Sequence record: QB031384.1 | Source of the DNA: a phage | DNA: 42,708 nt | Direction: 5' to 3' (one strand) | Part shown: in pieces, positions 3 through 36,080 of the stretch | How the letters are laid out: every line of letters starts with the position of its first letter | Position numbering within the stretch: the first letter of the stretch is position 1 | Program-made: the position numbers and the translations under genes | The notes under the pieces: generated by a model | Seen by the model: the letters and a program-made list of their open reading frames with translations, nothing else | Told to the model about the DNA's origin: nothing | Databases searched by the model: none

Positions 3-3000
3 TTACCCCTTATTATGTGCCAGCGATTTTACCTGCTCCTTTAGACGGGCAAGTTCTCTACGCTGGTACAGCATCTCAATGAAGAACATCTGATCAGGTC
101 GAATACCCCAACGACTACCTGCAGGAGTAACTACACTTACATTACCTTCCTCGTCATATTCCACCATCTCAGGGTACTCATCGTAGCACAGGAACCCGTA
201 CTTACATGAAGTAGCTTCAGGCTCCATAAGTCCGTTCGTAACGAGCACGTCACGTACCTGCTGTGCTATTACACCGAAGTGAGTACGAGCAGCATCCCCT
301 TTAGTAGCTAGACTGTCAAGCCACTTAAAGCTAATGATATGTACATCCTCCCAAGCATCTAACAGTGCCGATTCCACTTCCTCTGGAGCTGTTTTAAGAG
401 TACCGTCAGAAGTATTGATAGTGCCTGTAGCAGCGTACACCGTACTCCACCTATTAGATGCGCCTCCTAATGCTACAGAGGAGTCGTTATAAGGTAGCAG
501 GTTGTTTTGAGTGTAGACACCTCCCGTTGCGTACAGGACTGCCCTATTAGGCGTACTGTGATTAGATCCATAGAGTTGCACAATAGCGCCAGAGGCAGCG
601 GAGTTACCTGACCCTCCGCCCAGAATAAGCCGTTGCTGTGCTGGGTTATCAGTAGGCACTGACTTGTAAATCTGACCGTAATCCCCGTCCAGAAGTACTT
701 CAGACCGTACAGCAGGGATTCCGTTATGCCCAGTACCTGTAACACGCAAGGAGTTAACCTGTACGCTCTCATCAAAGACCATAGGCGCTGAAACATGACG
801 TAACCCATCTACCCCCATAGACACAGGTACAGTACGGTTAGGTGCTGCCCCGTATTTAAAGTCGCGAGACACATGCTGCTGCGGACCTACCTTAATACGG
901 TAGCTGTACAGGTCAGTAGGATGACCATCCTGCACGTACCAGCGCTTAGCAGAGTTACCTCCAATGGACCACGGGGATAAGAAATCCTCTCCGCCGAACA
1001 GATAGTACAGCCACCCATCCTTAACGCATACAGAACCTACCCCTACTGAGGAGTTAACTATGTTACCCTGATAAATCTGGTCGGTAACATTAAACCACTG
1101 CACCTCATCTAATGAGCTAGGCCAGTTACGGACGTTAACCTTGCACATAAAGGTGCGTGCGTAATTACCGTTGTAACGGTTATCAGGGGTATCCGCTTCC
1201 CACTCGTTTGCAGCCCGCTCACTCGAGAAGATATACAACTCGTCCCCCACCTTAGCAAAAGGTAGGTTACTGTTATGTACCTTGTTAGGGAAACGTAAGT
1301 ACTCCCAAGTCAAGCCTGAGTTAGTACTACGTGCCAAGGTAGAACCTGCGGAGGTGGCGGATGTTCCCCGAGTAGTAAGATACAACTCCCCGTCGTAATA
1401 GCGTATGCAAGGTTCGGAGGCATCGTTCGCGTACTCCTGAGACACTGTACGACGTTCAAATACTCCGGGATTGTTGTACACATCAGGGAAGTACAGGATA
1501 CCTAAACGTCTAGGAGAGACGTCACCGTTATGATAACCTACTGCAACTGCGTTACCTTCAAGGGCGGTAAAGCTATGGGTTTCAGTTACAGCTAAGTCAG
1601 CGTTAGTAGAGTATGCGATTCCCGGCAGTAAGGTCACTTCCCACTGGCAGTCCCAGAAACGTGTACCAAAGCTCCAAGTAACCCCGGCGTTGGTCAACGT
1701 TGAGGCAGCTGCGTTAGTTAAAGGTACTGTAATAGTATTAGCGTCAACTACGGTACGTACTACAGTATTACCTGAAACACCCGTAACCCCAGAGTTCGAG
1801 AAGTTAATAGTATCTCCTACCTTAAGCCCATGCATAGGAAGTACTACAGTAGCGAAGTTATCCCCAGCCACTGTGCTGATACCCCCAGTAGGCCTACGAG
1901 CATACGGCATTGGGCGCGACCACATCTCCGCCCGTACCATCCTAGCGTCAGATAGATTACGGGTCTCTACTAGCATGTACAAGCGGTTATTAGAAACACC
2001 CATGCTCATACAATGGTAGTTAACACCTGAGGCATAGTTAGGGTGGATAGGAGTAAGCCATTCTGGCATCGTCCACGTCTGACCATCGTCACCTGAACGT
2101 ACCCATGCTACATGCAGGTTCTGTACGCCATGCCGTTCACCTGCCATGAATGGTACGTATATTACATTATCATATACGAAAGACTTATCCTGAGTCCACG
2201 CATTGTAGAACGGGGTGTCTGTAATCTTAGTAAGACCTGCTTCGAAATAACCCTCCGATACATAAGTAAGAGGCTGACCCGCTAAGCGCTCATACTTAAA
2301 CGCGGCATTGCGGAAGCGGCTGAGGTCAGGTAAGGTAGTTACTTTAAAAGTTAAACCTTTACCGTCTATGTACTGATTATGGACCGCCGCTGCCAGCATG
2401 GCTTGAAGTGCTGCCGTATCATCCGTAACTGCATCACCTGCTACTCCCCATCCACGTACGTCAAAGGAATCTCTCCAATGAGGGCGGTAATACTCAGGAT
2501 TAACCTCAGGCCCGTCTATGCGAGTTAAGGCGTTACTCAGTGCAGCTAAACTCTCAGTAGTAGCATAACCTCCTTCCAGAACATCCTCACCTAGTCGCAT
2601 GAATACGTGAGTACCTGCGGGAACAGGGTCGGCTAGTATTACTGTATTGTCCCTAATGGTGTAACTGTACCCCGGAGTTTGACACACCCCGTTAATGTAC
2701 ACTGCTGCCTTTGTGAAGTTAAGGGCAATTCGGAACTCTTTAGTAGGTTCAGTAGTGTTGAAGTACATAGGGTAGCTGGAGGTAACACCGTTAAATGCAC
2801 CTTCGATGTTATCTACCCTGGTACTCACCTCATCCAGCTGTGACTTATTAACTGCATCCGTAGCGTCCTTACCTGCTGCCAGATTAATGATGCGGAAGCC
2901 GTTCATGTTGATAGTACCAAAGAAACCTTCGATACTGCGACCTTCTACCAGTTCCTGAGCTAAGTGCAGGAACTGGGTATTCTGAGTGTCTAAGTTCTCC

Positions 3001-3251
3001 TTAATAAAGGCAGCGCCTTCTGAGAACATGATGTAAAGAAACTCTTTAGCAGTGCGACGTACAATCAGTACAGTGCTCTCTGCATCGAGAGGCTTGTCAA
3101 AGCGGATGCGCGTATCACTGTCCCAAGTAAAATCAAATACCTCTTCACGGTTCACGTACAAGTAAATGTAGGAACGGTCGAGATAGTTGATCTCTACTGG
3201 GACAGTCTGTGCACCAGCTGGTAGAATTTGTTCTTGCCAGCTATAGGCCAT
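3..3251 (-). CDS. Tail fiber / tailspike: N-terminal T7 gp17-like adaptor, central Asp-box (BNR) beta-propeller glycosidase-like region, C-terminal intramolecular chaperone (peptidase S74-like)
   Basis: 1082-aa ORF. N-terminal region carries the tail-fiber motif FRIINLAAGKDATDAVNKSQLD. Central region has Asp-box-like motifs SGDDGQTWTM and STNSGLTWEY. C-terminus has TSDGTLK ... HFGVIAQQVRDVL, typical of autocleaving chaperone domains. Last gene of the structural module. Confidence 0.8.
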   Translation of the reverse strand: MAYSWQEQILPAGAQTVPVEINYLDRSYIYLYVNREEVFDFTWDSDTRIRFDKPLDAESTVLIVRRTAKEFLYIMFSEGAAFIKENLDTQNTQFLHLAQELVEGRSIEGFFGTINMNGFRIINLAAGKDATDAVNKSQLDEVSTRVDNIEGAFNGVTSSYPMYFNTTEPTKEFRIALNFTKAAVYINGVCQTPGYSYTIRDNTVILADPVPAGTHVFMRLGEDVLEGGYATTESLAALSNALTRIDGPEVNPEYYRPHWRDSFDVRGWGVAGDAVTDDTAALQAMLAAAVHNQYIDGKGLTFKVTTLPDLSRFRNAAFKYERLAGQPLTYVSEGYFEAGLTKITDTPFYNAWTQDKSFVYDNVIYVPFMAGERHGVQNLHVAWVRSGDDGQTWTMPEWLTPIHPNYASGVNYHCMSMGVSNNRLYMLVETRNLSDARMVRAEMWSRPMPYARRPTGGISTVAGDNFATVVLPMHGLKVGDTINFSNSGVTGVSGNTVVRTVVDANTITVPLTNAAASTLTNAGVTWSFGTRFWDCQWEVTLLPGIAYSTNADLAVTETHSFTALEGNAVAVGYHNGDVSPRRLGILYFPDVYNNPGVFERRTVSQEYANDASEPCIRYYDGELYLTTRGTSATSAGSTLARSTNSGLTWEYLRFPNKVHNSNLPFAKVGDELYIFSSERAANEWEADTPDNRYNGNYARTFMCKVNVRNWPSSLDEVQWFNVTDQIYQGNIVNSSVGVGSVCVKDGWLYYLFGGEDFLSPWSIGGNSAKRWYVQDGHPTDLYSYRIKVGPQQHVSRDFKYGAAPNRTVPVSMGVDGLRHVSAPMVFDESVQVNSLRVTGTGHNGIPAVRSEVLLDGDYGQIYKSVPTDNPAQQRLILGGGSGNSAASGAIVQLYGSNHSTPNRAVLYATGGVYTQNNLLPYNDSSVALGGASNRWSTVYAATGTINTSDGTLKTAPEEVESALLDAWEDVHIISFKWLDSLATKGDAARTHFGVIAQQVRDVLVTNGLMEPEATSCKYGFLCYDEYPEMVEYDEEGNVSVVTPAGSRWGIRPDQMFFIEMLYQRRELARLKEQVKSLAHNKG

Positions 3252-17924: not shown

Positions 17925-18572
17925 TTAAGCTTCAGGTAAGTGATTGTATTTACCTAAGTAATGCCGTATATACTCGGCCCTTGCAGATAACATATCATCC
18001 GCTTGACCTAGATGTACTCCCGCTACTCGCACATAGAACTTACCTGCCGCGCTATTCCAAAAGAAACCTTTAGTTTGACCAGACTTACGATTCTGTGCAT
18101 TCTTAACTTGAGTAGATGCACGTAGGTTGGTTGGATTATTGTTTAGTGGGTTGTTATCTATGTGGTCGACTACCTCGGGCCAACTGCTATATGTCAGAAA
18201 GTACACCGCCCTACTAGCTGATAAAGTCTTGTTGAAAGCCCTGCCAGAATATGCTGTTCTCTGGCTACTCTGATACTTATGAGCACTAGTAACCTTACCT
18301 GACAGGGCAGGACTGCCTGCCTTAATCTTACTGGCAGGCCCGGTAGTCCCCACTAAAGGCCGTCTCCAGCTAACCCAGCTCTCAGAGGAAGCATCTACTT
18401 GAAGGTACACTGCAATAAGCTCTTCCGTAGATAGCCTGTTAAGCATTTCCTTATACTTAGGCATAGGTGGTCCCCAGTTATCTGGATTATCTAGGTACTC
18501 TTTTGTAGCATACTTCTGAACAGGAGGGTGCACGCACGCCATCCATATTTCCCAATCGGTCATCTTAGTCAT
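17925..18572 (-). CDS. HNH homing endonuclease with AP2-like DNA-binding domain
   Basis: 215-aa ORF. HNH-type motif VDHIDNNPLNNNPTNLR and AP2-like GFFWNSAAGKFYVRV...RAEYI. Free-standing between the RNAP gene and the structural module. Confidence 0.7.
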   Translation of the reverse strand: MTKMTDWEIWMACVHPPVQKYATKEYLDNPDNWGPPMPKYKEMLNRLSTEELIAVYLQVDASSESWVSWRRPLVGTTGPASKIKAGSPALSGKVTSAHKYQSSQRTAYSGRAFNKTLSASRAVYFLTYSSWPEVVDHIDNNPLNNNPTNLRASTQVKNAQNRKSGQTKGFFWNSAAGKFYVRVAGVHLGQADDMLSARAEYIRHYLGKYNHLPEA

Positions 18573-22378: not shown

Positions 22379-22608
22379 AGGTCGAGTTCCTCGCCTTCAT
22401 CTAAATAGTGCTGCTCTGCAATCAAGTCCTCAAGCTGTACCTGCGCCTGCTTATACAATGCAGGGTCTTGCTTGTACAGCTCAGCCAGCTTGTCTTCCAT
22501 CTCTGCGAAGTTCTCTTGGAAGTACAGTTCAATTACTGCTTCTACTGCTGCGTTGAAAGTCGCCATGCCTTGTATTCCTCGTTGTATTGATGCAAGGCTT
22601 CCGCCCAT
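22372..22608 (-). CDS. Hypothetical protein (78 aa, acidic)
   Basis: ORF-track ORF overlapping the exonuclease 3' end. The true start may be the internal Met near 22566. Confidence 0.4.
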   Translation of the reverse strand: MGGSLASIQRGIQGMATFNAAVEAVIELYFQENFAEMEDKLAELYKQDPALYKQAQVQLEDLIAEQHYLDEGEELDLW

Positions 22609-23462
22609 TTCTGGAGGTCGCCCTCCAGTAGGGGGTGTATATAACTGAATGCCGAGTCATCTGGACTGCGACGAAGGAACAAGCATTCCATCTCAGCTAG
22701 GAAGTTCTGGTTAATCTCTGCGTAGGCCGCGACTACTTTGTTAGCCGCTCCCTTCTCCGTACTGCAATCCTTTAGGAACTCATACGCACCAGCTGGGCCT
22801 ATGTTCTTTCCCTTGTACTTAGTAAGTCCAGCAACGTGGTCAGCAGCGTCACCCATTAGCATCTGGGCGAACATGAAAGCTAAACCATGACCGACTACCT
22901 TACCTCTGGATTTATCGTACTCAATCCAGCCGTAAGCATCATCAATCGCATCTACAGTACCTAGCTCAGGGTTCCACTTAGGACCTCGGCAGAGGTTCAT
23001 ATCCTTATCGAAGCTACTTACTAGGCCTCGGTCACCGAAGGCCAAGCTGTCTGCAATAATGCAGTCGTCGGCTTCAGCTTGATAGTCGAAGATAATTTCA
23101 ATTCCTTGCACAGCATACTCGTGAGCATGCGCGATGAGATGAGCCTTAAGGGGTGCTTTGAGCGGTATCTCTTCTCGAGCTGCACGTTGGCCTTGGTACG
23201 GCTTAACGGTAGGCAGAAGGAACCTGCCGCATTTAAAGTTATCAGAAGGAGTAATGTATGCACGTACTTCCTTAGCGTTGCAGTAGAATTTCTCTTCGAG
23301 AACTAATTGATAGAAGCGCCGGACAGCTGTGTCCAAGCGCTTCACTGTACTCGCTGCCTTGTAGACTGCTTGGTCTGCGTCAAGCAGCAGCACAGTATCT
23401 GAAGGAGCAGGTGGCGCTAACTGAGCGCCAAGCTCATCTAAGTTAATGCCACCAATCTTCAT
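22542..23462 (-). CDS. 5'-3' exonuclease (T7 gp6-like, FEN/PIN-type)
   Basis: 306-aa ORF with an Asp-rich N-terminal active-site pattern (LLLDADQAVYKA, EADD). Position downstream of the DNA polymerase matches T7-group synteny. Confidence 0.65.
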   Translation of the reverse strand: MKIGGINLDELGAQLAPPAPSDTVLLLDADQAVYKAASTVKRLDTAVRRFYQLVLEEKFYCNAKEVRAYITPSDNFKCGRFLLPTVKPYQGQRAAREEIPLKAPLKAHLIAHAHEYAVQGIEIIFDYQAEADDCIIADSLAFGDRGLVSSFDKDMNLCRGPKWNPELGTVDAIDDAYGWIEYDKSRGKVVGHGLAFMFAQMLMGDAADHVAGLTKYKGKNIGPAGAYEFLKDCSTEKGAANKVVAAYAEINQNFLAEMECLFLRRSPDDSAFSYIHPLLEGDLQKWAEALHQYNEEYKAWRLSTQQ

Positions 23463-23848: not shown

Positions 23849-24640
23849 TTAAAGTGCAGGAGGAACAACAGCGAATGTAGGTGCGGCTGGAGCTACTGGG
23901 GCTACTGGAGCAGTTGGGGCAGCAGGTGCAGCAGGTGCAGATACTGAGGCAGGTGCAGCCATAGCCGCCATGTCAGGAACATCGCCCATTAGCATCTGCT
24001 GAAGAGCCGAGCCTTCGAAGTTAACTGCGCTCAGAATGTCTTCCTGAATGAAGTTGTTCTTCTCAATATGCAGAGAACCCCAAGTTTCTTTAGTCGGGTT
24101 ATCAAACAGGAACAGACGAAGACCTGATTCGTCCAATGCTGGCAGCTCTACCGGAGCGCCAGTCTGCGGGTCAAACTTAGGTAGAGTACGCAGACTCAGG
24201 AAGTCGATGGTGTTAGAAGTCTTACCAGCCTTACTGGTGTACTGCTCAACCTCAAACATGAACGCTTGGCCTAGACGTTGTGCCATGTGCTTCAGCGTGC
24301 CGTCATAGTTCATCTTGTCGAAGACTTGTTTAAACTTAGCTTTCTCGAAGCTGCTAATGGCCATTGGGAACGGATTAATACGCTTGATAGAACCATCAGG
24401 GGTGTAAACGATGAAGCCTAAGCGCACGTTCATTACTGCTGGCTTGCCAGTCGGCTTACCCATGTGCATAGGAATCTTTTTACCTAACTCGATGTACTCC
24501 ATGAAGCGGCCGAAGTAGGTACCTTTTGGCAGCAGTACATCGGCGAAGTTACCGCCTGACTGCGTTACTGATTGGTCGATACCTTGCTCAGCTACAGTTG
24601 CGTTAACGAGGGAAGACAGTGCGCTCAGATTGATGGTCAT
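23849..24640 (-). CDS. Hypothetical protein (263 aa) with Ala/Pro-rich low-complexity C-terminal tail
   Basis: ORF in the replication module. The last ~45 residues are low-complexity (APASVSAPAAPAAPTAPVAPVAPAAP...). Confidence 0.55.
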   Translation of the reverse strand: MTINLSALSSLVNATVAEQGIDQSVTQSGGNFADVLLPKGTYFGRFMEYIELGKKIPMHMGKPTGKPAVMNVRLGFIVYTPDGSIKRINPFPMAISSFEKAKFKQVFDKMNYDGTLKHMAQRLGQAFMFEVEQYTSKAGKTSNTIDFLSLRTLPKFDPQTGAPVELPALDESGLRLFLFDNPTKETWGSLHIEKNNFIQEDILSAVNFEGSALQQMLMGDVPDMAAMAAPASVSAPAAPAAPTAPVAPVAPAAPTFAVVPPAL

Positions 24641-24667
24641 ATTTGAATCCTTATATAAGTTTAAGAG

Positions 24668-24832
24668 TTACTTAGAGATTAATGTATTAGCAATACCATA
24701 GAACGTGGCAAGCAATGCAATCAGTGCCATCCCTACTACAGCGACTTTACCATAGAGTTGTATAAGGCCTAGTATACTAAATCCTACCGAACTTAGTGCG
24801 GCTGTTAGGCCCACTACCTTTAGAGTGCGCAT
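24668..24832 (-). CDS. Small hydrophobic protein (54 aa), not in ORF track
   Basis: ATG at 24832-24830 with AAGGT upstream; translation MRTLKVVGLTAALSSVGFSILGLIQLYGKVAVVGMALIALLATFYGIANTLISK, consistent with 1-2 transmembrane helices. Lies in a 300-bp gap. Confidence 0.35.
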   Translation of the reverse strand: MRTLKVVGLTAALSSVGFSILGLIQLYGKVAVVGMALIALLATFYGIANTLISK

Positions 24833-26018: not shown

Positions 26019-26591
26019 TTACATTGCCCAATCAGGACGCTCACCCTTACCGCAGTAAAAGTCAATCAGGTCTAGTAAGCGCGGATAATACTTCAGCGAA
26101 CTCTTACCGTCCATTTCCGCAACCTGGCGCCTACTGAAGCTGCGCCACTCTGCTGCCGTATGCTGCTGACATCCTGCACGCACTATGTCCTTACAGATAC
26201 TAATGAAGTACGTTTCTCCGTATATAATGACAGTCTTGGCGCCGCGCAGGTCAGCGCGGCGCAGGTTAGCGCCGCGCAGGTCAGCGTAGCGCAGGTCAGC
26301 GTCGCGCAGGTCAGTACCGGTCAGGTCAGCGCCGCGCAGGTCAGCGATGCGCAGGTCAGCGTCGCGCAGGTCAGCGCCGCTCAGGTCAGCGCCGCGCAGG
26401 TCAGTACCGGTCAGGTCAGCGCCGCGCAGGTTAGCGTAGCGCAGGTTAGCGCCGCGCAGGTCAGCGTCGCGCAGGTCAGTGCTGCTCAGGTCAGCGTCGC
26501 ACAGGTCAGCGTCGCGCAGGTTAGCGCGGCGCAGGTCAACGCTGTGCAGTCTTCCTAACTTATATATTTCGCAGATTTCTTGATAGTTCAT
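26019..26591 (-). CDS. Pentapeptide-repeat protein 1 (about 21 tandem A(D/N)LxG-type pentapeptides plus 70-aa non-repeat C-terminal domain)
   Basis: 190-aa ORF with an unbroken run of [15 protein letters not shown] pentapeptides after the N-terminal cap [12 protein letters not shown]. Strand chosen because all flanking genes are minus-strand. Confidence 0.8.
26238..26549. repeat. Tandem array of about 21 copies of a 15-bp unit (CGCAGGTCAGCGNCG-like) encoding the pentapeptide repeats
   Basis: Periodicity is visible directly: gcgcaggtcagcg recurs every 15 bp, varying mainly at 2-3 positions per unit. Confidence 0.9.
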
Positions 26592-26678: not shown

Positions 26679-27182
26679 CTACTTCTCCACAACTTCATAC
26701 TCTCCATGATTAGGATGGAATCCATGTAACCGCTCGACAGCCTTTCTTGCTTTAACAGCAAGGGTAATATCTGTAAACAAGCCCAAGTGCATATAAATGC
26801 CATCTACCTTTATACGCGCACGCCACTTACCAGCATTCTTATCCCAGCCTACGCCGCATATGCCGCTGGTGTTGCTCGAGTGTAGCCTCATATTGCGGCT
26901 GTTAGTGCTTTGATTTACTAACCTTAGATTAATTAACCTATTATCATCTTTAATATGGTTAATATGGTCTATTTGCAAACCTGCCGGAATAGGTCCATTT
27001 ACCATCTCATAAATTATGCGATGTAATTTGTAAGTCTTACCCCTTACCATGACCTGCATGTAACCACGCTTGTTTAAGCAACCAGCTACCTCTCCTACCT
27101 TTGAAGCACTTCTAGGTAACCTAATCTTCCAAATCAAAGCCCCTGTATCTGGGCAGTAGTTGAATATACTATTCCAATCCAT
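26679..27182 (-). CDS. HNH homing endonuclease with AP2-like DNA-binding domain
   Basis: 167-aa ORF with HNH motif LQIDHINHIKDDNRLINLRLVNQSTNSRN and AP2-like GVGWDKNAGKWRARIKVDGIYMHLGLF. Second such gene in the genome. Confidence 0.7.
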   Translation of the reverse strand: MDWNSIFNYCPDTGALIWKIRLPRSASKVGEVAGCLNKRGYMQVMVRGKTYKLHRIIYEMVNGPIPAGLQIDHINHIKDDNRLINLRLVNQSTNSRNMRLHSSNTSGICGVGWDKNAGKWRARIKVDGIYMHLGLFTDITLAVKARKAVERLHGFHPNHGEYEVVEK

Positions 27183-27378: not shown

Positions 27379-27489
27379 ATTGAATCCTCTTAAGTCTGCA
27401 ACCTCACCGCGAAGTTGCTTAACTAAGAGACTTCCTTAGCGAGTCTTATTTCTCTTAGACTCTCATCTGCATCGCACTGTATTACCTGT

Positions 27490-27638
27490 GCACGGGAGGA
27501 ACCGCTCAAGCTCGTACTATCTACCCAGAGCTTTCAGGAGGGCACCGGGATTAAAGTCCCCGGTGACTAACAAGCCGCTTTGCTATCTGCATCTCGTCTT
27601 GATGAAATGAATTCTACAGCATTCTAAAACTGTGTCAA
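27490..27638 (-). promoter_or_regulatory. Promoter-leader cassette R1: sigma70-like promoter (TTGACA - 16 bp - TAGAAT) plus conserved structured 5' leader
   Basis: -35 at 27633-27638 and -10 at 27611-27616. Downstream leader contains a hairpin (CACCGGG/CCCGGTG), GCCCTCCTGAA, a second hairpin with loop GGGTAGATA, and GAGCGGTTCCTCCCGT. Homologous to copies at 34406-34528 and 35943-36080. Confidence 0.55.
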
Positions 27639-27650
27639 CACTTATTTTAA

Positions 27651-28838
27651 TTAAATTACCTCTTCCTCTTTAAAGGATTTACCAATACCACATTCGGCGG
27701 GAAACTTAACTTCAGACAGTATGCCAAAGTTAGGCCACAACTGTAGCATCCTATCACGGGCTCCTTCCATAACGTTTTTGATGAGCTTACCCGCCTTACG
27801 GGCCGTCTCTTCGTCAGCACAATCTATGTACAAACAGTCATGGACGGTAACCAGCAAACACCATTTACCCCCCATCCAATTGTCAGCTATACCAGCCCTC
27901 ATAGCCATTCCGGTTGCAATAAGCATAAGCAGGGAACCTGATCCTTGAAACGGATAGTTAGCCATCTCTGTGGGCTTAAAGTCCATTACCTGCTTACCTT
28001 CGCGCCACACCGGCTTCTGACGGAAGCGGTAGCGAGTACCGCAAGGCGTAGTGAAGTAGCCCTCGCGATAGATACGCCAGCTGCCGTCATCTGCTTGTTC
28101 ACGGCGTATAGGCTCCAGCAGCGCAGTACGGTTTACTTCAGCTGCAATGACATCCCTGTACTTAATAGACTCAGGGAATAGTGCCTCCTCGTTAGCTAAG
28201 AACTTCTCAGCGTCGGCTAAGCTAGCACCTGAGGCGAACGCCAGTCCTTTAGCGGATGCTCCATATTGTGCTGCGAAGCTGAAGGTTTTGATGGCTGTTC
28301 GCTTCTTCTTCCATCCTTTATGGTCCGGTGCATCCGGGTTATGGCAAAGCTCGTAGACTTCTTCATAAGGCATACCTTCTTGGAATGCTAGACGATAGCA
28401 GTGCATATCCGTACCGGCTTCAAGCAAGCTCAGTAATTTCTTATCACCAGTGATTACACAGCCCATTACAACCTCCATAGCTGAGTAGTCACACTGTGCA
28501 ATCATACCCTGCTCACCATAGCGGCTACGCAGAATCTGCTTAACCTTAGACTCACGCGGCAGCTGCTGCATGTTCGGGTTAGATGTTGACAGGCGTCCGG
28601 TAGTAGTTGAGCAGTGATTCGACCTGTGGTGAATGATGCCAGAACCATCTGCTGATGTAGGGATGACGTACGGCAGCATGCCCGTCACCTTACGCAGACT
28701 GCCATCCTTATTAGTCTCACGTACTTCATAGAAGCCGAGGTCCTTCTGGCGTGTAGTCATTTCTTTGTATGCTTTGAAGAAGTCTGAAGCTAACTTAGCC
28801 ATCTTGTTCCATCCCAATAAAATAATGTGCAAGGTCAT
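27651..28838 (-). CDS. DNA polymerase, family A: polymerase (fingers/palm) part
   Basis: 395-aa ORF with TGRLSTSNPNMQQLP, motif A-like CDYSAMEV, motif B-like RTAIKTFSFAAQYG and motif C VHD. Overlaps the upstream exonuclease-domain ORF by 44 nt in a different frame. Confidence 0.85.
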   Translation of the reverse strand: MTLHIILLGWNKMAKLASDFFKAYKEMTTRQKDLGFYEVRETNKDGSLRKVTGMLPYVIPTSADGSGIIHHRSNHCSTTTGRLSTSNPNMQQLPRESKVKQILRSRYGEQGMIAQCDYSAMEVVMGCVITGDKKLLSLLEAGTDMHCYRLAFQEGMPYEEVYELCHNPDAPDHKGWKKKRTAIKTFSFAAQYGASAKGLAFASGASLADAEKFLANEEALFPESIKYRDVIAAEVNRTALLEPIRREQADDGSWRIYREGYFTTPCGTRYRFRQKPVWREGKQVMDFKPTEMANYPFQGSGSLLMLIATGMAMRAGIADNWMGGKWCLLVTVHDCLYIDCADEETARKAGKLIKNVMEGARDRMLQLWPNFGILSEVKFPAECGIGKSFKEEEVI

Positions 28839-29940
28839 TCATTGCGTCCGTTCCTGTGCTGTACACAGGGCTACCATCCGCTAATGTTTGAGCACCTTTG
28901 TATTCACCGCGGTCTCCGTACTTCTCACGTAGAGACTGAGGTAGGTCCTGAATATTAACCAGCCCGTCGAAGCGGTACAGGCGTTCACCCCACTTCATAG
29001 CTTGCTCGTCAGTGTCTACTTTTATGAACTTAGGCATACCCTTATTACGCCCAGACTTATACACCCCGTCCTGTACTTCCTTCTTAATGTATTTAGGTGG
29101 GTCATAAGGAACCTTGCACTTGTACTTAACCATGCCACCATACACTAAAGCGGACATATGATAACCGCTATTCCAGTTAAACTCGAAGCCCTCTGGCAAT
29201 TCTGGCAAGAATGTCTGAAGTAACTCCCGCAGATTCCGAATAGCGTCCTCCTGCTCCTTCTGGTTTACGCGTGCTGTAGGCATATCAACGTACACGCCAT
29301 TGAACTCACAGTATGCCAGAGCTGCGACTGCCTCCATCCTTTCCCAGACCATAGGCATCTGTCCACGTTCCGCAAATACTGCGCATTGCCCGTAGAAGCA
29401 CAGCGCTGTGTTGACTATGTCACCGTTAGGCCCTGTTAAGTATTCATGTAGTAGCATAGGGTCAATGTCTGCTGTCAGAACCCCTTGCTGCCATAGTAGC
29501 TTAACGCCGTCGACTTTGTGTGACCCGCCATACTTAGGGGCAGTCTCATCTAGTGACGGGTAAAGATTCTGGAAGTCGCTGGCAATGTACTCGCCCTGCA
29601 TAGTATCAAAGACTCGACCTCCTCGTCTAAGGAACGACTCGAACTGCTCACGGGCAAAGGTCAGCGCCCAGCTAATCTCGTACGCTGCGTTGTGCGCTAC
29701 GATTAACCACGTATCATCCTGAATAGGTAGCCACTGCTTAGGGTCAGCTGCTAAGAAATCAGTTCGGGATTCATAGCGTACACTCTGCACCTCGCTGCAC
29801 TGTACAGTCCCATCCGGCATAGTCCTATCAATGCGGAAGCCTGATTCTACGATGTAGTTATCAGGGCAGTACGGAGTTGCGACCCCGCCGTAGTACGGAT
29901 GATTTTGAGTTTCAATATCCCAAATTAGAATGCTACTCAT
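28795..29940 (-). CDS. DNA polymerase, family A: N-terminal 3'-5' exonuclease part (separate frame from the polymerase part)
   Basis: Exo I motif WDIET near the N-terminus. The ORF track starts it at a TTG (29946); the ATG at 29940 overlaps the upstream small ORF's stop as ATGA. Ends 44 nt inside the polymerase-domain ORF. Confidence 0.8.
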   Translation of the reverse strand: MSSILIWDIETQNHPYYGGVATPYCPDNYIVESGFRIDRTMPDGTVQCSEVQSVRYESRTDFLAADPKQWLPIQDDTWLIVAHNAAYEISWALTFAREQFESFLRRGGRVFDTMQGEYIASDFQNLYPSLDETAPKYGGSHKVDGVKLLWQQGVLTADIDPMLLHEYLTGPNGDIVNTALCFYGQCAVFAERGQMPMVWERMEAVAALAYCEFNGVYVDMPTARVNQKEQEDAIRNLRELLQTFLPELPEGFEFNWNSGYHMSALVYGGMVKYKCKVPYDPPKYIKKEVQDGVYKSGRNKGMPKFIKVDTDEQAMKWGERLYRFDGLVNIQDLPQSLREKYGDRGEYKGAQTLADGSPVYSTGTDAMNDLAHYFIGMEQDG

Positions 29941-30089
29941 TTCCAATTACTCCGACGTGATTTATTAATGGCTGCCCGTACAATCATCTCGCTACTGTCC
30001 AGCGTGTAGCGCCTAACCTGCTTACGATTGTTAGCAATTGCTCTGATGACTTCGTAGTCTGCCTCAGTAATATCACTTTGCTTTAGCAT
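29937..30089 (-). CDS. Small basic ORF (50 aa), not in ORF track
   Basis: ATG at 30089-30087 preceded by GGTGAGGTG; stop overlaps the DNA polymerase ATG. Translation MLKQSDITEADYEVIRAIANNRKQVRRYTLDSSEMIVRAAINKSRRSNWK. Confidence 0.35.
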   Translation of the reverse strand: MLKQSDITEADYEVIRAIANNRKQVRRYTLDSSEMIVRAAINKSRRSNWK

Positions 30090-32813: not shown

Positions 32814-33350
32814 TTAGATACTAACCCAATCAGCGACGCGCAGGTCAGCGTCGCGCAGGTCAGTGCCGGTCAGGTCAGCGCCGCGCAGGTTAGCGCCGCG
32901 CAGGTTAGCGCCAATCAGGTTAGCGTCGCGCAGGTTAGCGCCGCTCAGGTCAGTGCCGCGCAGGTTAGCGCCGCGCAGGTTAGCGCCGTGCAGGTCAGCG
33001 CTGCGCAGGTCAGCGCCGCTCAGGTCAGCGCCGCTCAGGTCAGCGATGTTCAGGTCAGCGTAGCGCAGGTCAGCGCCGCGCAGGTCAGCGCCGCTCAGGT
33101 CAGCGCCGCGCAGGTTAGCGCCAATCAGGTTAGCGTCGCGCAGCTTAGCGTCGCTCAGGTCAGCGACGCGCAGGTCAGCGTCGCTCAGGTCAGCGTAGCG
33201 CAGGTCAGCGCCGCTCAGGTCAGCGCCGCGCAGGTCAGCGTCGAGCAGGTTAGCGCGGCGCAGGTCAGCGCCGCACAGGTCAGCGCCGCACAGGTCAGCG
33301 CCTTCCAAGGATTCTAACTTGTATTTATTACAGATATTGTCATAAGTCAT
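32814..33350 (-). CDS. Pentapeptide-repeat protein 2 (about 32 tandem pentapeptides; paralogue of 26019-26591)
   Basis: Unbroken A(D/N)L(R/S/C)G-type run that ends at the stop codon. Preferred start is the internal ATG at 33350 (GAGGT SD 8 nt upstream; cap MTYDNICNKYKL matches [12 protein letters not shown] of protein 1). The ORF track extends it to 33401. Confidence 0.8.
   Translation of the reverse strand: MTYDNICNKYKLESLEGADLCGADLCGADLRRANLLDADLRGADLSGADLRYADLSDADLRVADLSDAKLRDANLIGANLRGADLSGADLRGADLRYADLNIADLSGADLSGADLRSADLHGANLRGANLRGTDLSGANLRDANLIGANLRGANLRGADLTGTDLRDADLRVADWVSI
32827..33302. repeat. Tandem array of about 32 copies of the same 15-bp unit (CGCAGGTCAGCGNCG-like)
   Basis: Same 15-bp periodicity and unit sequence as the array at 26238-26549, on the same strand. 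Confidence 0.9.
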
Positions 33351-33360
33351 ATTAGTAACC

Positions 33361-33597
33361 TCAGTTAATTTTAATATTAAAACGTGCACAATACCCTTCA
33401 AGGGTCATCCCTACTTTAGCTGCTTTAAGACTGTAAGCTAACTTAAGAGCTTCCTTAGCGTCATGCTCACGAGCCAGCTTCTCAATCGTTACTTCATCAT
33501 TACGCATCAGAATCATTTCGGGGTTCCGGTTAATCATTTCTGCATCTCCAGTTTGAAAAGGGCCATTGCAGCGTTCCAGGCGAAACGCGGGTTGCAT
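33361..33597 (-). CDS. Hypothetical protein (78 aa)
   Basis: ORF-track ORF in the early/middle region. No motif recognised. Confidence 0.45.
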   Translation of the reverse strand: MQPAFRLERCNGPFQTGDAEMINRNPEMILMRNDEVTIEKLAREHDAKEALKLAYSLKAAKVGMTLEGYCARFNIKIN

Positions 33598-34312: not shown

Positions 34313-34405
34313 CTTAACTCCTTAGTGGTTTTATTAAAGCCCTCCGCAGAAGGCTTTGTAAAACTACTTTAGTTTCTTTCATCTCAGACCCACTGAATTA
34401 TCCGT

Positions 34406-34528
34406 GGACGGGAGGAACCGCTCGAGCCTGTTCTATCTACCCTAGGCTCTCAGAAGGGCAATCACTTAGCGTTGTTGATTAACGTCCTGCTATGAATCCA
34501 ACTATACTCCTATTTTATTTTGTGTCAA
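34406..34528 (-). promoter_or_regulatory. Promoter-leader cassette R2: sigma70-like promoter (TTGACA - 16 bp - TATAGT) plus conserved structured leader
   Basis: -35 at 34523-34528 and -10 at 34501-34506. Leader has a hairpin (AATCA/TGATT), GCCCTTCTGA, a GAGCC/GGCTC stem around GGGTAGATA, and GAGCGGTTCCTCCCGT. Confidence 0.55.
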
Positions 34529-34531
34529 CAC

Positions 34532-35197
34532 TTATTTTGAAATTCTTTCTGAAATATACACAAATCCCTTAGGAGTAAACTGCGCAGAGATGCGTGCAAC
34601 CTTTAATCTGTCAAAAGTAACCTTATGCTCCCCACGTTTAGCCTTTAGCCAGCCTGCACTGAATGTCCACGTACCATTCAATTTATACATATGCTTATTC
34701 TCTACCAGCCAACTTCTTACTTCAGCTTCAGTGTAAGATAAGAACTTACACATCTCACGGAAAGTCATAAGACCTGTAGTATCTACATAGTTACCTACGA
34801 ACTCAACCTTAGGCGCTGCTTCTTCTACCTTCTCTTGGAGCTTCAAGTTCTCTTCTGCGTAGTTCTGGAGAAGTCCCAGCAACTGCTTAGGGTCATGCAA
34901 GTTAATAGCAGGCTGACGTTGCTTACGCTCCAGCTCTTCCCAACGGTCAATGATACGGGCGCGCAGTTCTACATTGTAGCCAGAGATAATAAGTAATGTA
35001 TCACGTTTAGTTAAATGCCACTCGCGCTGTTGCTGATTATTATATCCGGCGTAAGTTACTGATTTACTTGATTGGCTCAAAACTGAGCCAATGCTTTCAA
35101 TGTCCCTAAGTACGTTCTTATGCAACTTACCAGTCAGCTCAGCAATCTCGCGGCTAGTCATGGTCTGTACATCAGTAGTAGTAGTTAAATCAAACAT
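34532..35197 (-). CDS. Rha-family regulatory protein with KilA-C/antirepressor-like C-terminal domain
   Basis: 221-aa ORF. N-terminal MTSREIAELTGKLHKNVLRDIESI matches the Rha signature as recalled. C-terminal half resembles antirepressor KilA-C domains. Confidence 0.55.
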   Translation of the reverse strand: MFDLTTTTDVQTMTSREIAELTGKLHKNVLRDIESIGSVLSQSSKSVTYAGYNNQQQREWHLTKRDTLLIISGYNVELRARIIDRWEELERKQRQPAINLHDPKQLLGLLQNYAEENLKLQEKVEEAAPKVEFVGNYVDTTGLMTFREMCKFLSYTEAEVRSWLVENKHMYKLNGTWTFSAGWLKAKRGEHKVTFDRLKVARISAQFTPKGFVYISERISK

Positions 35198-35882: not shown

Positions 35883-35942
35883 CTTAGCGAAGCTCTTGTC
35901 TCTTCAATCTAGTGAGCTTCTCATCTATTCCCTCTGTATAAC

Positions 35943-36080
35943 CCGAGGACGCTAGGTAACGCTCAGAACCTGTTTATCTACCCCGATTCTTCAGGAGGGC
36001 AGCGGCTTTATGTTATCCGCTAACGTCTTGCTTATGTCTTGCTATGTGATGAAGTATACGCTTCAAAACAGGTAAGTCAA
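35943..36080 (-). promoter_or_regulatory. Promoter-leader cassette R3: sigma70-like promoter (TTGACT - 16 bp - TATACT) plus conserved structured leader
   Basis: -35 at 36075-36080 and -10 at 36053-36058. Leader has a hairpin (AGCGG/CCGCT), GCCCTCCTGAA, an AGAAUC/GGUUCU stem (one G-U pair) around GGGTAGATA, and a diverged GAGCG...CCUC segment. Confidence 0.55.

Follow-up and report, generated by a model that had tools for sequence, protein, structure and literature searches.

The gp2.5 protein of phage T7, which is abundant and essential, has an oligonucleotide-binding (OB) fold in which a helix separates strands b3 and b4, as well as a C-terminal tail for interactions, and a C-terminal end of the DDDIPF type is the signature tip of bacterial single-stranded DNA-binding proteins (SSBs). 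DUF669 proteins and the N4 SSB form a recognised group of phage SSBs whose OB fold is "highly evolved" and has no confident sequence link to classical OB folds (Kazlauskas et al. 2016, PMC4889955), and the DUF669 member of HK620 is an SSB in vitro (PMC5928155). The present work concerns a gene located at positions 23849-24640, on the minus strand, of sequence record QB031384.1, a stretch of 42,708 nucleotides (hereafter the window) that is the genome of a phiKMV-like podovirus. The record nearest to it, Escherichia phage vB_EcoP_P64441 (Slopekvirinae), is 93.5% identical in DNA over 80% of a query of 8 kb that spans the replication region. The best described homologues of the gene product are Gp21 of LUZ19 and ORF21 of phiKMV (CDD PHA02030), known as an uncharacterised conserved middle-phase protein. 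LUZ19 Gp21 is among the two most abundant early/late-early phage proteins, its sequence gave no function prediction, and its expression from a single copy causes an immediate growth arrest of P. aeruginosa (Lavigne et al. 2013, PMC3604761). In the phiKMV-like phage PpY1, deletion of gp27 results in no plaques (PMC11596505); this 1050-bp hypothetical gene lies directly 5' of a 942-bp 5'-3' exonuclease gene, lengths and order being those of phiKMV ORF21 and ORF22, and we infer from synteny and length that gp27 is the family orthologue.

We propose, with a probability of roughly 0.6, that the gene of the window encodes the phage's own SSB for replication and recombination, which would belong to a distinct family and be built on a predicted OB-fold core. 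Such a protein would be the functional counterpart, in phiKMV-like phages, of T7 gp2.5 or of the SSB of E. coli. The high abundance and the apparent essentiality reported for relatives fit this proposal, the abundance of LUZ19 Gp21 because an SSB is needed in stoichiometric amounts.

Predicted fold and C-terminal tail

An earlier note on the window had described a 263-residue protein with an Ala/Pro-rich C-terminal end at this locus and had suggested structure prediction as a check for an OB fold. The coordinates proved exact, on the minus strand, in the list of open reading frames (ORFs), and the prediction gives the OB strand order with a predicted local distance difference test score (pLDDT) above 90 and, as best structural matches, ssDNA-binding OB folds. 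The AlphaFold2 model, built on a 30-sequence alignment, has a mean pLDDT of 80.5 and exceeds 90 across most of residues 40-220. The gene and its product are divided as follows.

23849-24640, minus strand: target coding sequence, 263 residues plus stop, ATG start (ORF list), member of the phiKMV gp21/LUZ19 Gp21 family (PHROG 862)
24648-24652, minus strand: Shine-Dalgarno sequence AAGGA, 7 nt 5' of the ATG, read from the sequence
24584-24640, minus strand: residues 1-19, N-terminal helix (residues 5-19), modelled by AlphaFold2 with low confidence
24524-24583, minus strand: residues 20-39, flexible loop, conserved in sequence (pLDDT below 50 for residues 19-33)
24185-24523, minus strand: residues 40-152, OB-fold core as predicted by AlphaFold2
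23984-24184, minus strand: residues 153-219, conserved C-terminal subdomain, mostly short helices (near-invariant columns, pLDDT 86-96)
23852-23983, minus strand: residues 220-263, tail, disordered, uncharged, Ala/Pro/Val-rich, with period-3 prolines (composition, pLDDT 48-63)
23887-23911 and 23919-23940, no strand assigned: two short 9-bp tandem arrays in the tail-coding DNA (Tandem Repeats Finder)

The order of elements in the core, b1 (40-55), b2 (69-79), b3 (85-94), helix (102-110), b4 (126-135) and b5 (141-152), is the OB-fold strand order. Ahead of it, the loop carries residues D22, G29 and G30, which are invariant or nearly so in the two family alignments (A1 and A2). Behind it, the C-terminal subdomain is the best-conserved part of the family, with the consensus LFLWxNPTKETWDSL...NFIQExIL...GSxLQxLL and near-invariant columns at F177, W179, P182, W187, N196, Q199, G210, S211 and L213.

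Foldseek against the PDB gave no match at E ≤ 0.001, and the list is topped by bacterial and mitochondrial SSBs, which is a trend and not a significant match. Against BFVD, Foldseek finds the family itself, including Xp10 37L and phiL7 p43, then DUF669 proteins (E 3.6e-5 and 7.6e-5, template-modelling score about 0.3-0.5) and a protein annotated as SSB (E about 4-8e-5). The AlphaFold2 model of the N4 SSB, composed of an N-terminal helix, a disordered Gly loop, b1-b3, a helix and b4-b5, has its elements in the order seen in the model of the window protein through b5; beyond this strand, it continues with an additional hairpin, helices and a disordered tail.

The Ala/Pro richness of the C-terminus pointed out in the earlier note is the most extreme of the window. 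The 44-residue tail (DVPDMAAMAAPASVSAPAAPAAPTAPVAPVAPAAPTFAVVPPAL) contains 17 Ala, 11 Pro and 6 Val, so that Ala and Pro make up 64% of it versus 12% of residues 1-219. It ranks first for Ala+Pro among the 13,420 windows of 44 residues taken from all six-frame ORFs of at least 100 residues (mean 13.7%, standard deviation 6.4%, 99.9th percentile 46.8%). A single period-3 register accounts for nine of the 11 prolines, a spacing that is expected of a polyproline-II-like rod. There are two acidic residues in the tail, both near its start, and the protein ends in a hydrophobic ...PTFAVVPPAL with Leu as last residue. The 9-bp arrays in the underlying DNA are a likely substrate for changes of tail length between close relatives. 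Among the closest relatives listed (79-97% identical overall), tails are 38-55 residues long, the reading frame and composition are kept, and the tails almost always close with P-[PA]-x-[VILM].

The family, its tail endings and its candidate functions

The window protein matches phrog_862, labelled "unknown function" in PHROGs, over residues 6-253 (E 1.1e-66) and LUZ19 gp21 with 39% identity over 218 residues (E 7e-39), LUZ19 gp21 itself matching phrog_862 with an E of 1e-95. By tblastn, homologues occur in 840 phage records, or 998 when phiKMV ORF21 is the query, always within the replication module, between the genes for DNA polymerase and the 5'-3' exonuclease; among their hosts are Klebsiella, Acinetobacter, Pseudomonas, Pectobacterium, Vibrio, Xanthomonas, Ralstonia, Rhizobium and Caulobacter. 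An exhaustive search with a hidden Markov model retrieved 955 clusters at 50% identity (683 of them at E ≤ 1e-10), and in the 150 best listed clusters the conserved domain begins at the N-terminus or close to it, with additional residues on its C-terminal side. The gp21 gene is immediately 5' of the exonuclease gene in phiKMV and LUZ19, and two metagenomic loci (L005 and L006) show DNA_pol_A, then the family member, an unannotated ORF of exonuclease length and Endonuclease_7.

In about 100 sampled records the family gene is nowhere annotated as SSB; the labels are hypothetical protein, "large tegument protein", "putative tegument protein", "oxidoreductase", "structural protein" and "5'-3' exonuclease". 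Four of these labels ("large tegument protein", "oxidoreductase", "5'-3' exonuclease" and "structural protein") were rejected as artefacts that low-complexity sequence or adjacent genes produce. The literature outside subscription journals gave no SSB assignment for phiKMV, LUZ19 or Autographiviridae. The family was known before as a conserved ORF, and its assignment as SSB and the modularity of its tails were not found in searchable annotations and literature.

All 30 aligned homologues carry a tail of 40-115 residues, similar in composition and divergent in sequence. In 231 members, the tail that follows the GSxLQxLL motif ranges from 16 to 310 residues (median 57), and Ala+Pro reaches at least 45% in 159 of the 218 members whose tail has at least 30 residues; the pooled tails contain 28% Ala, 22% Pro and 11% Val. 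An ending of the type acidic-[IVL]-P-[FYWL], such as ELDDDIPF, DFDDDIPF, DADDDIPY, NDDDIPW or SDDDIPL, is present in 10 of 146 representatives (50% identity), for a chance expectation of about 0.005, which is a rough hand estimate from tail composition. Two proteins, P0109 and P0172, join an Ala/Pro-rich (AP-rich) or PQ-rich linker to the acidic tip, and this combination ties the AP-rich tails to the classical plan of a linker plus a tip. In the two tip-bearing members whose locus was checked (P0172 and P0225), the order is DNA polymerase A, the member, an unannotated ORF of exonuclease length (301 or 346 residues) and endonuclease VII.

Two other kinds of ending recur. A D-x-LAALGL-like motif, D-x-L-A-(A/E)-L-G-L, ends 21 of the 146 representatives (proteins P0227-P0266, outside the window), and in two of them an acidic tip, (D/E)E(I/V)(P/T)(F/L), comes after this motif (...LSELGLNDEVTF and ...LALLGLGDEIPL). 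AP-rich tails, as in the window protein, are the other kind; in their last 12 residues, [LIMF]-Pro dipeptides are enriched 3.6-fold (Wilcoxon p 2e-6, 56 representatives). In the lineage of the window, the acidic tip is lost or was never present and a hydrophobic, Pro-rich end is found instead.

The predicted OB fold, the disordered tail and the DDDIPF-ended relatives at the same locus together make an SSB-like protein with a flexible tail the best reading. This part of the earlier note therefore stands. The tail of the window protein being uncharged and devoid of the acidic, aromatic-ended tip on which the tails of gp2.5 and of bacterial SSBs depend, the T7 mode of interaction is not simply transferable. 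We infer ssDNA binding, cooperativity and the existence of a tail partner. According to the mechanism that we propose, the OB core (40-152) and the C-terminal subdomain (153-219) would coat the ssDNA exposed at the fork opened by the phage helicase-primase and polymerase, and also that produced by the neighbouring 5'-3' exonuclease. The N-terminal helix, mounted on the conserved Gly-rich flexible loop, could provide protein-protein cooperativity. The 44-residue Ala/Pro tail would be comparable to the disordered linker of bacterial SSBs and act as an extended, polyproline-II-like tether, whose hydrophobic end ...VVPPAL may dock on a partner protein.

The genome content also supports such a function. 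By Pfam and PHROG, no other SSB was found among the replication and early-region products and the two ORFs just downstream of the RNA polymerase, scans which recovered primase, helicase, exonuclease, endonuclease VII, a kinase, an Ant/Rha-like regulator, HNH endonucleases and pentapeptide proteins. Searching the window by tblastn with gp2.5, the N4 SSB and the HK620 SSB gave no match. There is no SSB annotation in the closest relative P64441 or in the first 20 kb of phiKMV, and the C-terminus of the helicase has no tail resembling that of the window protein (compare T7 gp4, which resembles gp2.5).

Several observations weigh against an SSB. No Pfam family matches the window protein at E ≤ 0.1, no Pfam SSB family matches 19 family members at E ≤ 10, and searches of PDB chains with the protein and with a 19-sequence profile gave noise only. 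With hhalign, the family alignment A2 was not significantly related to T7 gp2.5 (E 0.66), and a 267-sequence family alignment scored E 0.45 against 121 N4 SSB relatives and E 0.6 against 120 DUF669 relatives. The globular part of the protein has an isoelectric point of 6.8 and is not basic, its C-terminus has no DDDIPF-like acidic tip, and the median net charge is -1 in AP-rich tails versus -7 in the other tails of the family. Some family members are related by NCBIfam to a model named "phage replication initiation protein". Finally, expression of LUZ19 Gp21 lowers transcription and translation by 20-25% and leaves host DNA synthesis unaffected (PMC3604761), a toxicity profile that does not obviously fit a rogue SSB and makes a second, host-directed function possible.

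Since the control pair N4 SSB and DUF669 recognise each other in hhalign (probability 83%, E 8.6e-6) and the comparisons of our family are not significant, we do not claim homology to proven SSB families. The PHROG profiles agree: the window protein has no match to phrog_112, the family of T7 gp2.5, to which gp2.5 itself matches with an E of 2e-57, and the family proteins have no match to phrog_743 (N4 SSB/DUF669). On this point the comparison with T7-group phages made in the earlier note does not hold, homology to T7 gp2.5 being undetectable by hhalign, phrog_112 and tblastn. A "GG...aromatic b1" motif apparently shared with N4 SSB/DUF669 is based on the eye and the alignment register only. 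Sequence and profile tests being all negative, an OB-fold SSB is argued here from structure and architecture and not from sequence homology.

Among the alternatives, the one that survives best is a recombination-specific single-strand annealing or mediator protein, which would work with the adjacent 5'-3' exonuclease, in the manner of lambda Exo/Beta or of the annealing activity of T7 gp2.5 with gp6, while the host SSB serves replication. The gene order favours it, the gene being directly before the exonuclease and endonuclease VII genes in phiKMV/LUZ19 and one gene away in the window, as do the double annotation of T7 gp2.5 as SSB and annealing protein and the typical pairing of DUF669 and N4 SSB genes with Sak4 annealing proteins. 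However, the fold matches are OB folds of the SSB/RPA type and not Rad52, RecT or Erf folds, and the DDDIPF tips are a hallmark of SSBs; we therefore hold a protein limited to this role unlikely. The two roles are not exclusive, because gp2.5 performs both.

The phenotype of LUZ19 Gp21 (growth arrest, transcription and translation reduced by 20-25%, DNA synthesis spared) would fit a host-takeover protein of the middle phase, abundant, whose low-complexity tail binds a host machine, for example the RNA polymerase or the translation apparatus, and shuts it down, the OB-like body being a scaffold, and the N4 SSB, which is also an activator of host RNA polymerase, is a precedent. Nevertheless, the gene belongs to the replication module across very diverse hosts, whereas dedicated takeover genes are usually early, small and host-specific, and it is the globular domain that is conserved and not the supposed effector tail. 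Moreover, the toxicity may be a side effect of an over-expressed SSB, and the PpY1 orthologue behaves as essential, which is unusual for accessory takeover genes. We consider host takeover as the primary function rather improbable.

A replication initiation protein, origin-binding or primase-like, is suggested by the NCBIfam model NF046043 ("phage replication initiation protein, NGO0469 family"), which matches P0225 (E 2e-10), P0172 (E 6e-9) and LUZ19 gp21 (E 6e-4) over the OB-core region. These matches score 19.5-40.4 bits, far under the 75-bit cutoff, and the window protein has no match to the model at E ≤ 0.1. The NGO0469 name comes from BLAST matches of 2007 to a nanovirus Rep and a phage primase (26-32% across 87-109 residues) and not from any experiment; having traced it to this weak inference, we did not adopt it. 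A primase and a DnaB-like helicase are already encoded in the window, and an OB fold with a disordered tail and a DDDIPF tip is unlike the architecture of initiators, which makes this function very improbable. A virion or "tegument" structural protein, as written in some GenBank records ("large tegument protein", "putative tegument protein", "structural protein"), is hardly credible, these names most likely deriving from low-complexity AP-rich matches to a herpesvirus tegument protein, the gene lying in the middle (replication) and not the late region, and LUZ19 Gp21 appearing with early/middle proteins, ahead of the capsid protein.

If gp21 is the SSB of these phages, the gap in their replication module is filled, the abundance in mid-infection and the apparent essentiality are explained, the toxicity of LUZ19 Gp21 receives a concrete hypothesis, and a widespread mis-annotation (840-1000 records) can be corrected. 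Phages with the phiKMV-type module include Klebsiella (KP34-like), Acinetobacter (Fri1-like) and Pseudomonas (phiKMV/LUZ19) phages, those most used in therapy and engineering. As a more tentative extension, which we regard as possible rather than probable, the gp21 family could be an unrecognised SSB lineage with a modular C-terminal "address label", which would be, depending on the phage lineage, an acidic DDDIPF tip of the host type, an amphipathic D-x-LAALGL motif or an uncharged, polyproline-II-like Ala/Pro tail with a hydrophobic, Pro-rich end. If so, the uncharged tail would represent a new, non-electrostatic recruitment of partners by an SSB. Alternatively, the tail would engage a host machine, for example RNA polymerase as the N4 SSB does, which would account for the growth arrest and the reduced transcription and translation caused by LUZ19 Gp21 with DNA synthesis untouched. 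Varied tail endings on one conserved body would offer a natural experiment in the choice of SSB partners by tails.

Genomic surroundings and other elements of the window

The minus strand carries all long genes of the window. Two neighbours position the target gene within the replication module.

22542-23462, minus strand: 5'-3' exonuclease gene, one gene downstream of the target gene (phrog_107, E 9e-60, and synteny)
27651-29946, minus strand: family-A DNA polymerase in two overlapping ORFs, upstream of the target gene and transcribed in the same direction (ORF list; two coding sequences annotated in the relative)

In the direction of transcription, the order is primase, DnaB-like helicase, family-A DNA polymerase (two ORFs), HNH endonuclease, pentapeptide-repeat protein, metallophosphoesterase, a 54-residue hydrophobic ORF, the target gene, a 123-residue ORF, 5'-3' exonuclease, endonuclease VII, a nucleotide kinase-like protein and a T7-type RNA polymerase. 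The location between polymerase and exonuclease given in the earlier note is thus correct, the gene being downstream of the ORFs at 27651-29946 and upstream of 22542-23462; the positional analogy with the T7 group is loose, because gene 2.5 is not between polymerase and exonuclease in T7. A scan for sigma-70 promoters and terminators around the target gene gave no result above chance.

Directly 5' of the target gene, the strongly hydrophobic 54-residue ORF (MRTLKVVGLTAALSSVGFSILGLIQLYGKVAVVGMALIALLATFYGIANTLISK, 24668-24832, minus strand) looks like a small insertion coding for a membrane peptide, since the corresponding gap measures 97 nt in the closest relative versus 303 nt here. The two DNA polymerase ORFs (27651-28838 and 28795-29946, minus strand) are in different frames and overlap by 44 nt. 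The polymerase is annotated as two coding sequences in the closest relative too, versus a single 807-residue gene in phiKMV, and either a genuine split or a programmed frameshift may underlie the arrangement. Two genes resembling HNH (HNH_3) homing endonucleases are located at 26679-27182 and 17925-18572 (minus strand). P64441 has no HNH gene at either of these sites and has HNH elsewhere, for example between the exonuclease and the 123-residue gene; these are mobile endonuclease genes that vary among near-identical phages.

A sigma-70-like promoter (AAAATAAGTGTTGACA, about 17 nt, TAtAnT) occurs three times between genes on the minus strand, at about 27602-27648 and 34492-34538 and, for the third copy, about 45 nt upstream of its element. 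A conserved element of about 85 nt starts about 45 nt past each promoter (27460-27544, 34376-34460 and 35917-36001), with the pattern TGCCCTCCTGAA...GGGTAGATA...GAGCGGTTCC...AGATGAGAG. RNAalifold on the three copies gives a 6-bp helix around an invariant GGGTAGATA loop, with pairs changed on both sides at 6 of 6 positions. An Rfam scan of the whole window returned no family, including for this element, which may be a structured leader of a new type on early transcripts.

Two pentapeptide-repeat proteins are encoded at 26019-26591 (Pfam Pentapeptide, E 3e-37) and 32814-33401, on the minus strand, by genes that share a family of 15-nt periodic DNA repeats; they may be DNA mimics, anti-defence factors or gyrase-directed factors. 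An ORF on the opposite strand at 26160-26558 ("AQVSAAQVS...") was discarded as a mirror artefact of the 15-nt repeat. Finally, a 1082-residue ORF (3-3251, minus strand) has the length of the "endo-N-acetylneuraminidase" coding sequence of the closest relative; if homologous, the phage would target polysialic-acid (K1-type) capsules.

Comparison with known single-stranded DNA-binding proteins

PrgE of plasmid pCF10 (PDB 8s4s) has only 11% identity to the window protein; it is 128 residues long and has neither the C-terminal subdomain nor the AP-rich tail. The role expected of the window protein is that of T7 gp2.5 (PHROG 112), again in a phage with a single-subunit RNA polymerase of its own; the tails differ, gp2.5 ending in ...EADEDGDF, acidic with an aromatic end, and the window tail having neither property. 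The SSB of E. coli shares with the window protein the OB domain, predicted here, and the Pro-rich disordered linker, and with 10 of 146 family representatives the C-terminal tip. Unlike the bacterial protein, the window protein has a larger globular part, with an added N-terminal helix and C-terminal subdomain, and a hydrophobic, uncharged tip (...VVPPAL).

The N4 SSB (gp45) and HkaK of HK620 (PHROG 743), with 265 and 195 residues, are similar in size to the window protein. The N4 protein also possesses a disordered Gly-rich loop with a GG motif and a terminal disordered tail; it is distinguished by a long extra b-hairpin (residues 150-187) and by the tail end SLFGKK, and the HK620 SSB ends in DYPPF.

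The homologous LUZ19 Gp21 differs from the window protein in details of length and gene order. It has 349 residues with a tail of about 100, versus 263 and 44 in the window protein, which also lacks an insertion of about 20 residues that LUZ19 Gp21 has in the b2-b3 region, and the 123-residue gene that separates the target gene from the exonuclease gene in the window has no counterpart at this place in LUZ19/phiKMV, where no gene intervenes. Both proteins nevertheless combine a globular N-terminal domain with a low-complexity A/P/V-rich tail, and both are encoded upstream of a 5'-3' exonuclease.

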